Shown here piece after piece: positions 46,768 to 52,700 of a DNA stretch of 64,000 nt (the first letter of the stretch is position 1; every line of letters starts with the position of its first letter). The position numbers were made by a program. Where the stretch lies: the NCBI RefSeq assembly GCF_055900595.2, contig NZ_CM148325.1; one strand, 5' to 3'.

Positions 46768-49700
46768 TAATCGCCAATTTGCTGAAGCTTTGTGAAAAAG
46801 CCCGCGCAAGCGGGTTTTTTTATGCCTGCAGCTTTTGTGATGCGTGAGAAAACACACTGCCGGTTGCCAGAGAGTCAAAAGTTACAGGTTCTTGCAGACA
46901 TGCCGTTACACTCTCTGAACTCTTCGTGACTTAAGAATCGTAGAGTCATCGGCTGATATATTCTGAATAAGAATATCTACTCAATCTTCAGACTCCCCCT
47001 ACACAGAATGTGGAGATTGTGATACACATTGAGGTATTAAACTTAAGACCACTCTATCTTTGAATTAAATTCCTATACACTTTAACCATCCATAAATATC
47101 ACTTTATTAAATCTAATAAATTATTAACCACAATCAATACAGGTTAAATACTTATTTATAATGTACTTATTAAAAACTAATGAGCGATTTTTGATAGTAA
47201 TCACATATACTTTAAAATAAATTAATAAAAAAACTCATCAAATTCAAGGACTGATAATGAAAGATGGTATATATACTTTGCCACATTATCTTTATAAATC
47301 AAATATAGCAGATAATGAAACAATAAAGGAAACAAGAAAAGACAATTCATTAAAAATATTATGCGAGTATAAAACAGAGTTAATTATTTTATTTGATGAT
47401 TTTCTTAGAAGCCAACAGTTACCTAAAATATCTCCAGCACTTCATTTTTTATTTCAACAGACTAATTTGATAGATGCGCATTTTTATAGATGTAAAGTCC
47501 AAGAACACACAATCCAACTTTCTTTTTTAAAAGACAAAAACATCACATTACTTAGATTGGATGTTTTTGATGACGTCACAAGTGAATATATTACTGAAGA
47601 TATTAAGATATCAGAAGATTGCCATGTCAAATTCCTTAAATTTTTAAAGACAAACTTCGATCAGGAAATATACGATCAGTTATATACTCCTGAAATATTT
47701 TATGAAGCCTGCAAAAAAGTTCAGTCATTTTATGATCATCAGGATACCTTGCTAAACAGAAAATACAGAGAAATAGACAAGAAAAAAGGTTATCTTAGCA
47801 AGGAACTCAAAAAGCTAATTAAAATGAATACATACCCTGAGTTATACAATGGGCAATATCAAAAAATCCCTTACTTATCCATCGATGTTAACCAAGATAT
47901 AACATGGCAGAATTTTAAAACTAGCAACACAGCATATTCACAGCTTTGTGAAAAATTATCATCTTTTAAAATTACGACTAATCAATTAATACAAAAAACA
48001 GCTTGCTGCACAACTGAAAAAACGACCACCAATAAATTTAATGTTGTCTTTTCTTACGACGGATATTATATAAAGGAATTTATACTTTTATTACCCTATA
48101 ATAAATCCATGGAGATTTATGAACTTAACAAGCAAAAAATCCAGTACTTGACTGCTCCAAATATTAACATACATAAAATATTGCTATCAAACTTAACGAT
48201 AGAAAAGAGCAACCTGACATATGGTTATTATTCCACTTGTATATTATCAAATATATCATGCTTTGAAAGTGACTTATCAAACACAACCTTTTTCAATGGA
48301 GAAATAAATAATCTTTTCTTAAAAAAATGTAATATATTTGGAGTATTCTTCATTAAAACAAAAATAAAAAACCTTCTCTGTGAAGATATTATGCCTGTTC
48401 GATGGACCACTCAACTTGTCAATAAGTACTTAGGTAACATATATACAGGAGTATTCAAAACACTGGGAAGTATTGATGACAAAGCGTCTCGTTTCGAAAT
48501 TTTGATTCCATTGGTTCAAACATTAGTTCGCGACAATGTAACGCTAAATAATGATGTGTATCAAGAATTGAGTAAGTATATGCACGATTACGACAAAACA
48601 TCTCCGGAAATGAGTAAATACCTTCAGAGCATCAATGAAAGTATGTTCCTTATGACAAACATCCCTCATCAGGATCCCCCCCCAAAGAAAGATGTTATTC
48701 AGAATAAAATTACATCTGATGTATATTAATTCACTGCAGAGAAATAAAAAAACCTGAAACATGCACTCAAATATCCTACTCTTCACTCTAATGAGTGAAC
48801 CCCAGAACTTTTATAAAGAAGCGAGCAACGAAGAATATTAAACTTTCAACATTTCATCAACTTCACATCAAAAATTTAAAAACTTAAACATTAATATAAA
48901 TACTAACAACCTGATCACATAATCAGGTTTGAAAATGAGTAACCTTCCATACTAGTCAATTAAGAATGATTTATGAAAAAGTATATTATTCCGTTCGTGG
49001 CGACAACGTTGATATTCAGCGTAACAACCTTCGCCAAGGATGTCGATCAAGGAACGCTAACCATTAGAGGAGAAGTTGTTGATACAACGTGTTACTTTGT
49101 TAATGGTGATTCAACAACCGATATTGTTGTCGAAGATGTTGTAACCAGTGCAATGAATCAACTTATTAATAATGAAATCTATACTTTAAAAACCGGTTCA
49201 ACCGCTCATGACTTAGAAATTCAGTGTGATGGCAATACAGCACCAAATATCGAAGTATTAGCCTCAGAGTTTGATGCTAATAACTTTACGTTGAATAAAG
49301 GAACTGCTGAAAACGTTGGCTTTGCCTTTTTCCTCGGTGATGGAAATATGACAAGAATATTGCCAGGTGTAAAAACACCGCTGAAAGATAATGGTTCTGG
49401 ACAATATTTTCTTAATATAAATGCACAATATGAGCGTACAAGTACCGATCCTGTAACAAAAGGTTCCGTGGAGTCAACCGTGACGATTAAAATCAGTGCA
49501 GATTAAAATTTTTATGCCGGTAGCTCTGCTACCGGTATTATTTACGGAGTGATTACATGAGAATTATGGTGATGCTGCCAACTTACTGATTTAGTGTATG
49601 ATGGTGTTTTTGAGGTGCTCCAGTGGCTTCTGTTTCTATCAGCTGTCCCTCCTGTTCAGCTACTGACGGGGTGGTGCGTAACGGCAAAAGCACCGCCGGA

Positions 49701-52700
49701 CATCAGCGCTATCTCTGCTCTCACTGCCGTAAAACATGGCAACTGCAGTTCACTTACACCGCTTCTCAACCCGGTACGCACCAGAAAATCATTGATATGG
49801 CCATGAATGGCGTTGGATGCCGGGCAACCGCCCGCATTATGGGCGTTGGCCTCAACACGATTTTCCGCCATTTAAAAAACTCAGGCCGCAGTCGGTAACC
49901 TCGCGCATACAGCCGGGCAGTGACGTCATCGTCTGCGCGGAAATGGACGAACAGTGGGGATACGTCGGGGCTAAATCGCGCCAGCGCTGGCTGTTTTACG
50001 CGTATGACAGGCTCCGGAAGACGGTTGTTGCGCACGTATTCGGTGAACGCACTATGGCGACGCTGGGGCGTCTTATGAGCCTGCTGTCACCCTTTGACGT
50101 GGTGATATGGATGACGGATGGCTGGCCGCTGTATGAATCCCGCCTGAAGGGAAAGCTGCACGTAATCAGCAAGCGATATACGCAGCGAATTGAGCGGCAT
50201 AACCTGAATCTGAGGCAGCACCTGGCACGGCTGGGACGGAAGTCGCTGTCGTTCTCAAAATCGGTGGAGCTGCATGACAAAGTCATCGGGCATTATCTGA
50301 ACATAAAACACTATCAATAAGTTGGAGTCATTACCGAGAATTATAACAGCATTGCTGATGTCATTTTTTATTTTACCTGTTCATGCGGGTGTGGTCATCT
50401 ATGGTACGCGTATTATCTATCCAGAAAAAAACAGAGAAGTTCTCGTACAGTTAATGAATCAAAGCAAAAATGCCTCTTTGATTCAGGCATGGATCGATGA
50501 TGGAAACACAACTATCGCGCCAGAAAAAATTCAGGTCCCATTTATTCTCACTCCGCCAGTAAGTCGTGTAGCAGGAGGTTCTGGCCAACAACTAAAAATA
50601 AAAAAATGCCAAACAACTTACCTCACAATAAAGAAAGTTTATTTTATCTAAATGTTATGGACATCCCTCCAAACAACCCACAAAATGCTGGAAAAAACAA
50701 AATTAAACTTGCATTACAAAACCGTATAAAGTTATTTTGGCATCCCGAAGGCGTAGCGCCGGTAGATAAAAAAAGCCTGTCTCAATTAAATATCAAAAAG
50801 AAAGATAATGCCATCTCAATAAACAATGAAACAGCGAACTGGATAACGATTACAACTATCAAAGCCCAAAATGTGAAAGTTAATAATGAAAGTATATTAC
50901 TACCTCCATTTTCTAATAACGAAATTACATTAAAAAATAACAACGCCTCAGAGTATGAACTAACGGTAGTTGATGATTACGGGAATAATATCAATAGTAA
51001 AATCGCTGCAAAATAACAGGTAAAAGTCATGTTAAGGACGACACGATGGGTCGCTGCAATTATTATTTTGTATTCTTTTCCAGGTTATGCTGAAGAAACT
51101 TTTGATACACACTTTATGATCGGCGGCATGAGAGGAGAAAAAGTTTCTGAATATCATTTAGATAATAAACAACCGCTTCCAGGAAACTACGAACTTGATA
51201 TTTATGTAAACCACCAGTGGCGTGGAAAACAAGATATCATGGTCCCAGAGTCACCAACCAAACCATGTCTGCCTGAGGAGCTGTTCACCAAACTGGGGGT
51301 GAAGACCGATAAGATCAATACAGAAGATCATTGTATTTCACTGGATGAAGCGGTTCATGGTGGTCAATATCAGTGAACACCGACTAAATTTAACGATCCC
51401 ACAGGCGTATATCAATGAACTTGAAAGAGGTGACGTTCCTCCGGAAAGTTGGGATCGCGGCATTGATGCTTTTTATACCTCCTATAATTTATAGTCAGTA
51501 TCGCTCTTATGACAGTAATAATAACAGTAATACAGCCAGTTATGGTCGTTTTAACAGCGGATTAAATTTATTTAGTTGGCAATTACACTCTGATGCCAGC
51601 TATAGCAAGCCTGATGATATGAAAGGCACATGGCAAAGTAATACTCTTTACCTGGAACGTGGCTGGTCGCAAATATTAAGCACAGTTCAGATAGGAGAAA
51701 ATTACACATCCTCACTCATATTCGACTCTCTGCGATTTAGCGGAATACGCTTATTTCGCGATATGCAAATGCTACCTGATTCTATGCAGAACTTTACACC
51801 TTTAGTACAAAGTGTTGCGCAAAGTAATGCCTTGATAACGGTTACGCAAAATGGCTACATCATTTACCAAAAAGAGGTTCCCCCGGGACCATTTACTATC
51901 GCAGATTTGCAACTTTCGGGCAGCGGCGCTGATCTCGATGTCAGCATAAAAGAAGCAGATGGTAGTGTTCGTTCCTTTTGGTGCCCTACTCTTCCGTGCC
52001 CAACATGCTGCAACCAGGTGTTTCAAATCTCGATTTTATCGCCGGACGCAGTAAGATATATGGTGTAAATAATCAGGAGGACTTTCTTGAGGCAAATTAT
52101 TTATATGGCCTCAACAATCTTGTGACACTGTATGGCGGTTCGATTTTAACTGATAACTATAATGCAATAACGTTAGGAAATGGTTGGAATACACCGCTGG
52201 GTGCTATTTCTTTTGACGCTACCCGATCGAGTAGTAAGTTATATAATGATAAAATACACGAAGGTACAAGCTATCAGGTCGCCTATAATAAATATCTAGT
52301 GCAAACGGCTACTCGCTTTAGCGTGGCCGCCTGGCGTTATGCTTCGCAGGATTACAGGACATTCAGCGACCATCTTTACGAAAATGATAAACACAATCAT
52401 CATAGTGAATATGATGATTTTTATGATATTGGCAGAAAAAATAGCCTTTCTGCCAATATTATGCAACCTTTATCCACCGGCATAAAAATTGCTCTCAACG
52501 ATGAACAGAACTTATTTTGTACCATTACTTTTAAAAACGTTATCGATGAAAATAAAACATATATATGTCAGTAAAAGGAGTTTACTATGAAGTGGCTTTT
52601 ATTGCTCTCCTTGAGTCTATATTCTTTTATTGTACAAAGTGCTCCCTGTACACTGACTAATGTCGGTGAACAACGTGGAACTTACACTCTAAAACCACTT

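Follow-up and report, generated by a model that had tools for sequence, protein, structure and literature searches.

In the 64,000-nucleotide stretch of DNA analysed here (contig NZ_CM148325.1 of RefSeq assembly GCF_055900595.2; hereafter the window), the insertion sequence IS1 lies within a fimbrial operon between rpsT and nhaR. Reading along the plus strand, the order is ribF (on the minus strand), rpsT, an espX1-like effector gene, the gene for a fimbrial major subunit, IS1, a fimbrial periplasmic chaperone gene, fragments of an usher gene, an adhesin-like gene, and then nhaR and nhaA (both on the minus strand). The interval 47000-53500 has a guanine plus cytosine content of 25-42%, compared with about 50% in its flanks, and we refer to it as the espX1-fimbrial island. 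The event recorded at this locus is of a known kind: a textbook IS1 insertion in an already dead fimbrial chaperone gene, that is, ordinary genome decay.

The IS1 occupies positions 49568-50335 on the plus strand, exactly 768 bp with the termini GGTGATGCTGCC... and ...GGAGTCATTACC. It is the single IS1 in the whole window, and its orientation is that of the fimbrial operon and, relative to the flanking genes, also that of IS1A in E. coli K-12. The element is bordered by two plus-strand copies of the 9-mer GAGAATTAT: the left copy, at 49559-49567, spans the last base of the ATG to the second base of chaperone codon 4, and the right copy is at 50336-50344. The sequence-only reading had described a full 768-bp IS1 between identical 9-mers, and both reading of the sequence and a script confirm this: the copies are identical, their identity ends at 9 bp with no extension beyond, and the 9-mer occurs only these two times on both strands of the window. 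The probability that two given 9-mers match by chance is about 4e-6.

IS1 has been described as an element of 768 bp with an A6C frameshift and target duplications of 8 or 9 bp (PMC12428005), and the window copy conforms to the family in every structural respect: a length near 768 bp, imperfect repeats of about 23 bp starting with GGT, insA and insB' with A6C, and a 9-bp duplication. The left inverted repeat, GGTGATGCTGCCAACTTACTGAT (49568-49590, plus strand), and the right one, which reads GGTAATGACTCCAACTTATTGAT on the minus strand (50313-50335), match at 18 of 23 positions, their outer ends being GGTGATG... and GGTAATG.... Within the element, insA (49623-49898, plus strand, 91 codons) corresponds to the zinc-finger/helix-turn-helix repressor part of the transposase, and the insB' frame (49817-50320, plus strand) is open to its stop codon; the A6C motif (AAAAAAC, 49874-49880, plus strand) is the programmed -1 frameshift signal that joins the two (PMC12428005). 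Both parts match the NCBIfam model NF033558 (transpos_IS1), with 90 bits and, for insB', 143.8 bits. With its frames and ends whole, the copy is apparently intact. RefSeq labels the isoform 'IS1-like element IS1B family', and it is near K-12 IS1A, from which it differs at 7 of 768 nt (99.1% identity), with one amino-acid change in InsA and one in the InsB' transposase region. Exact matches to all 768 bp (100% identity) exist among the IS1 copies of E. coli plasmids and in one chromosome.

The interrupted gene extends over 49557-51016 on the plus strand (49557-49567 plus 50345-51016), and it is both split by IS1 and frameshifted. Once repaired, its product has 227 amino acids, the length of the intact chaperone in mainstream E. 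coli, and contains PapD_N (residues 19-141, E 6e-40) and PapD_C (residues 163-219, E 1e-6) domains behind an N-terminus, MRIITALLMSFFILPVHAG, that looks signal-like by inspection. From these matches, the predicted product is a PapD-type fimbrial chaperone of the chaperone-usher pathway. The best profile match is StcB (NF011789), which aligns end to end (E 8e-96) with 319.7 bits against a cut-off of 500; for YehC (NF011764), the score is 283.6 bits against a cut-off of 372. The adjacent major subunit (48973-49506, plus strand, 177 amino acids) is YehD-like (E 2e-33), with 115.6 bits against a cut-off of 136 for NF011766; no other fimbrial gene of the operon is intact. Because these scores fall below the curated equivalog cut-offs, we regard the genes as paralogs in one clade with the Salmonella Stc and E. 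coli Yeh fimbriae rather than as StcB and YehD orthologs; the chromosomal locus of those fimbriae also differs from that of the window operon.

The location of the insertion in codon 4 of the chaperone gene, as first read from the sequence, stands. The accompanying claim, that removal of IS1 and one duplication copy rejoins a continuous chaperone N-terminus, holds for the start of the gene only. In silico excision of 49568-50344 does yield ATG AGA ATT ATA ACA..., translated as MRIITALLMSFFILPVHAG..., but the rejoined frame runs for only 105 codons before it reaches a stop at 50649-50651. An alignment to the intact allele of LP-26-E1-261 shows why: one nucleotide is missing from an A-run near 50601, which places the remainder of the gene in another frame. 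Thus, no intact, translatable chaperone is encoded here: the gene is interrupted by IS1 at codon 4, and after excision it is still frameshifted.

Natural uninterrupted sites show the nature of the insertion. The excised window sequence is identical to the uninterrupted site of E. coli EC42405 (61 of 61 nt), where the 9-mer is present in a single copy, and over 797 nt it is 99.4% identical to the sequences of RMDEC465, N96, 2013C-4282, and WL297. When the excised sequence was used as an 800-nt probe, the uninterrupted junction was found in 1,202 of 5,426 complete E. coli genomes, 8 of which carry the window-type allele at 98.5-99.4% identity. The flanks of the window IS1 are collinear with relatives on both sides and become contiguous after excision. 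Since a natural empty site exists, the element is a simple IS1 insertion, as had been proposed, and the comparison with IS1-free strains bears this out. The occupied junction itself was found in none of the 5,426 complete genomes when searched with an 800-bp junction probe (the nearest match being an adjacent insertion in E. coli EC2), and an exact 30-nt scan of the GTDB representative genomes found none either. It had also been argued that the intact duplication points to a relatively recent insertion. This argument has little dating power, as 18 bp would stay unchanged about 70% of the time at about 2% divergence; for a private insertion, a better argument than the duplication is its absence from the 5,426 genomes, among them the 8 that carry the window-type allele.

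The remaining genes of the operon tell how far its decay has gone. The usher pseudogene (51029-52574, plus strand) consists of three frame fragments; its differences from the intact allele of LP-26 are an 11-bp deletion at 51366, a +1 change at 51492, a -1 change at 51975, and an 894-bp deletion at 52473. An extra A at 52878 puts the last, adhesin-like fimbrial gene (52587-53547, plus strand) out of frame. We compared these lesions with three IS1-free strains that carry the same allele (EC42405, RMDEC465, and 2013C-4282). All three have, at identical positions, the chaperone -1 near 50601 as well as the 894-bp usher deletion, and two of them have the 11-bp usher deletion; RefSeq lists the chaperone and usher of these strains as frameshifted or incomplete. 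What is private to the window strain is the IS1, the usher frameshift at 51975, and the adhesin-like gene frameshift at 52878. Because the IS1-free relatives share the chaperone frameshift and the usher deletion, no working gene was inactivated by IS1. By parsimony, IS1 would have entered an operon that was already non-functional.

The island has a counterpart in O157:H7 Sakai, where the same gene order is found at the same nhaR-rpsT locus: ECs_0019 (a pseudogene), ECs_0022 (usher), ECs_0023 (chaperone), ECs_0024 (subunit), and ECs_0025 (espX1). The window carries a divergent allele that is about 92% identical to that of Sakai. Its chaperone starts with ATG instead of GTG and is frameshifted, its usher is shortened, its effector has 490 instead of 473 amino acids, and it has the IS1. 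Nothing usable came from literature searches for an established name of the cluster or for an account of the K-12 deletion discussed below; Low et al. (2006) reportedly call the cluster loc1. The other cargo of the island, the espX1-like type III effector gene (47257-48729, plus strand), is intact. Its 490-amino-acid product is typical of the window-type allele, compared with 473 amino acids in mainstream E. coli, and it had no match in NCBIfam. At 99.5% identity to the copy in EC42405, this gene is far more conserved than the adjoining fimbrial pseudogenes (96-98%).

The window is not the only place where IS1 has struck this island. In sequenced E. coli we counted no fewer than eight separate IS1 events, of which four are simple insertions with duplications and four are IS1-bounded deletions without them. 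Besides the window insertion (49568-50335, duplication GAGAATTAT), the simple insertions are those in E. coli EC2 (NZ_CP058571.1; 6390-7157 of compared stretch L003, equivalent to about 49552-49559 of the window), with the 8-bp duplication GTTACGTG; in LP-26 (equivalent to 53342-53350), with AGGACGGTG; and in NRZ99027-2 (53452-53459), with CAGATTCC. In window coordinates, the deletions extend from 47036 to 53410 in K-12, from 47894 to 49126 in OZ197100, from 47193 to 53257 in EC0026B, and from 47340 to 53176 in VG12A2. The generation of adjacent deletions is a classical property of IS1. The deletions in K-12, EC0026B, VG12A2, and OZ197100 fit this pattern, whereas the window IS1 shows no deletion. 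A broader idea, which we consider unlikely, is that IS1 has done most of the eroding of the espX1-fimbrial island in E. coli as a whole, the active IS1A of K-12 being one of the scars.

Two of the simple insertions are close neighbors. The EC2 element lies 7-8 bp upstream of the window site, and its isoform differs from the window IS1 at 71 of 768 nt (90.8% identity). It leaves the chaperone open reading frame intact but severs it from its upstream region, and it is independent of the window insertion. The sequence GGAGTGATTAC (49546-49556, plus strand), which holds the chaperone Shine-Dalgarno sequence, agrees with the right end of IS1, GGAGTCATTAC, in 10 of 11 positions, so that the native upstream sequence is almost restored at the right IS1 junction. 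This is the sole such match outside IS1 in the 64 kb. It is located 3 bp upstream of the duplication, and the EC2 insertion abuts it. According to older work on target choice by IS1 and Tn9, sequences homologous to IS1 ends reportedly occur near insertion hot spots. The significance of GGAGTGATTAC is uncertain, since this pattern was selected post hoc. That the chaperone start is a true local hot spot, with GGAGTGATTAC acting as a pseudo-end that recruits the transposase, is a tentative idea that we consider unlikely. A statistical enrichment of IS1 in the island as a whole was considered and rejected: genomes with any IS1 match have a median of 10, and about 8 events in 6.5 kb are not clearly above expectation without a phylogeny-aware count. 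We dropped this claim because IS1 is abundant over thousands of genomes and the AT-rich island is dispensable.

The K-12 event deserves separate attention, since the sequence-only reading had suggested that K-12, which carries IS1 in the same interval, may be a deletion derivative of an arrangement like that in the window. K-12 does carry IS1A between nhaR and rpsT; the island is lost there, and after IS1A only 138 bp of the last fimbrial gene remain. The K-12 flank aligns with the window up to 47036 on the left, so that the left junction of IS1A is equivalent to 47036/47037, and from 53410 on the right, where the junction, 53409/53410, falls inside the last fimbrial gene. K-12 lacks 6,506 bp relative to Sakai and is therefore descended, by deletion, from an ancestor that had the island; IS1 lies at the scar. 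This IS1A has no target duplication (...TTGAGGTA, IS1, AGCAATTAC...), and its left and right junctions were found in 571 and 562, respectively, of the 5,426 complete genomes. It has been identified as one of two 'consensus' IS1 copies behind most IS1 transposition in K-12 (PMC12428005). Thus, K-12 IS1A and the window IS1 share their interval and orientation, and K-12 IS1A is tied to the loss of the same espX1-fimbrial island. Nevertheless, K-12 IS1A bounds a 6,506-bp deletion without a duplication and, unlike the window IS1, has its junctions outside the chaperone gene.

Other genomes were searched for steps leading to the K-12 arrangement. A composite probe for two hypothetical simple insertions detected no exact intermediate in which one K-12 junction is combined with an intact opposite side, only independent IS1 events. 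The K-12-type deletion without IS1 was not found either; the only deletion without an insertion sequence was a different one, in AR_0069 and WS0115A. These two strains (AR_0069, compared stretch L015, 1590-1700) lost the island without any insertion sequence and with breakpoints of their own, an independent loss. Compared with the K-12 IS1 junctions, their breakpoints are no more than about 10 bp away on the left and 75-90 bp away on the right.

Three alternatives to this picture have to be weighed. One is that the flanking 9-mers match by chance, or that recombination between two IS1 copies, not transposition, produced the arrangement. Apart from its formal possibility nothing speaks for it, and the 9-mer is found only twice in 64 kb, in both cases directly abutting an IS1 end, in flanks that are collinear with relatives on both sides. 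It is refuted by the empty-site match, because excision gives base for base a natural allele, and we assign it virtually no probability. Another is that IS1 was the first inactivating event in a working operon and that the frameshifts and deletions came later. An IS1 in codon 4 alone would indeed end chaperone synthesis, and the private frameshifts at 51975 and 52878 could postdate it. However, three IS1-free strains have both the chaperone -1 and the 894-bp usher deletion in identical places, so that this order of events needs either two lesions that arose independently or precise IS1 excision in every relative; we consider it highly unlikely. Several points do weigh against the preferred picture of a private, late, and neutral insertion. 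The strain itself is outside the searched collections, and the insertion could be fixed in an unsampled lineage. The frameshift-first order is a matter of parsimony over 3 relatives that are 1.3-2.3% divergent in the region, and precise IS1 excision in each of them, or recombination between alleles, is formally conceivable. Finally, it is we who infer that the insertion is polar and neutral.

The third alternative concerns descent: K-12 IS1A could derive from this insertion, or from one at the same site, via two successive IS1-mediated adjacent deletions, one per side, with espX1 and the major subunit gene lost on one side and everything from the chaperone through most of the adhesin gene lost on the other. 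The geometry permits this, since the K-12 junctions lie on either side of the window site; the orientation of IS1 relative to rpsT and nhaR is the same in both genomes, and the absence of a duplication in K-12 is as expected after an IS1-mediated deletion. However, the two have no junction in common (47036 and 53410 in K-12, 49567 and 50336 in the window), and the IS1 isoforms differ, at 7 nt, as do the island alleles: the K-12 adhesin remnant is 100% identical to the Sakai allele and 93.5% identical to that of the window. In core genes, moreover, the window lineage and most E. coli share only about 96% identity. The route also requires two deletions where one insertion and one deletion would suffice. 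Independent IS1 insertions in the adhesin gene near the right K-12 junction are known from LP-26 and NRZ99027-2, the IS1-bounded deletions of EC0026B, VG12A2, and OZ197100 have junctions of their own, and no one-junction intermediate genome turned up. We give descent by this route a very slim chance. The loss of the island in K-12 probably did not proceed from the insertion seen in the window, judging by these sequence comparisons. Of the earlier suggestion, the part that makes K-12 a deletion derivative of the full island, associated with IS1, is retained; the link to this particular insertion is not supported, with the junctions, the 7 nt, the allele, and the core-gene divergence of the lineage all speaking against it.

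Taken as a whole, an account in which IS1 inserted into a dead operon, in an island repeatedly eroded by IS1, with K-12 IS1A representing a separate 6.5-kb deletion, is very probably correct. The course of events may be pictured as follows. An apparently intact IS1 would have transposed into GAGAATTAT at codons 1-4 of the chaperone gene in a Yeh/Stc-like operon, and a staggered 9-bp cut followed by repair would have given rise to the flanking duplication. With IS1 in place, the ribosome-binding site, ATG, and 3.7 codons lie apart from the remainder of the chaperone gene, and the element would be polar on the downstream genes. Because the operon was already dead, the insertion would have had no functional cost. 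Two further frameshifts would have been added later, or acquired separately, in the window strain. The insertion would thus be a private, selectively neutral event in a decaying, horizontally acquired island.

The chaperone, the usher, and the last fimbrial gene are to be annotated as pseudogenes, and the loss of the fimbriae is not to be attributed to the window IS1. In K-12, IS1A marks the place where espX1 and a fimbrial operon were lost through a 6.5-kb deletion. The island could also serve as a small natural dataset on IS1 target choice and IS1-bounded deletion. Beyond annotation, the insertion is of little importance.

The window belongs to a divergent Escherichia lineage, whose core genes (e.g., 32000-46500) are 96.1% identical to those of most complete E. 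coli genomes and closest to those of R32_14_1F, 2020CK-00188, and EC42405, at 98.4-98.5%. Shigella, a candidate source on account of its wealth of IS1, was rejected on the basis of these identities (96.1% to most E. coli, 98.4% to a few divergent strains) and of the single IS1 in the 64 kb. Two of these close relatives, R32_14_1F and 2020CK-00188, have an MFS (major facilitator superfamily) transporter gene and a gene for a TIM-barrel protein between rpsT and nhaR and no espX1-fimbrial island; given this other cargo, the rpsT-nhaR interval is a site of replaceable cargo.

Several other loci in the window differ from K-12. Between apaH and folA, where K-12 has only 88 bp, two small open reading frames of 77 and 104 amino acids (15393-15943, minus strand) have the look of a ccdA/ccdB-like toxin-antitoxin pair, which we take to resemble the chromosomal ccd system of O157. 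Between rihC and ispH, there is an additional open reading frame of 402 amino acids (39064-40374) that is not found in K-12 and is annotated in other E. coli genomes as an XAC2610-related protein. A 3.8-kb island between nhaA and mokC (55954-59737), also missing from K-12, contains hypothetical, sulfatase, and ompK-like genes; compared with EC42405 and R32_14_1F, its hypothetical gene (55968-56980) has lost 268 bp at 56549/56550 and is thereby split. The IS421 that K-12 has between dnaJ and mokC is not present in the window, and the mokC/hokC locus carries the sok antitoxin RNA (59811-59963; Rfam RF01794, 116.9 bits).

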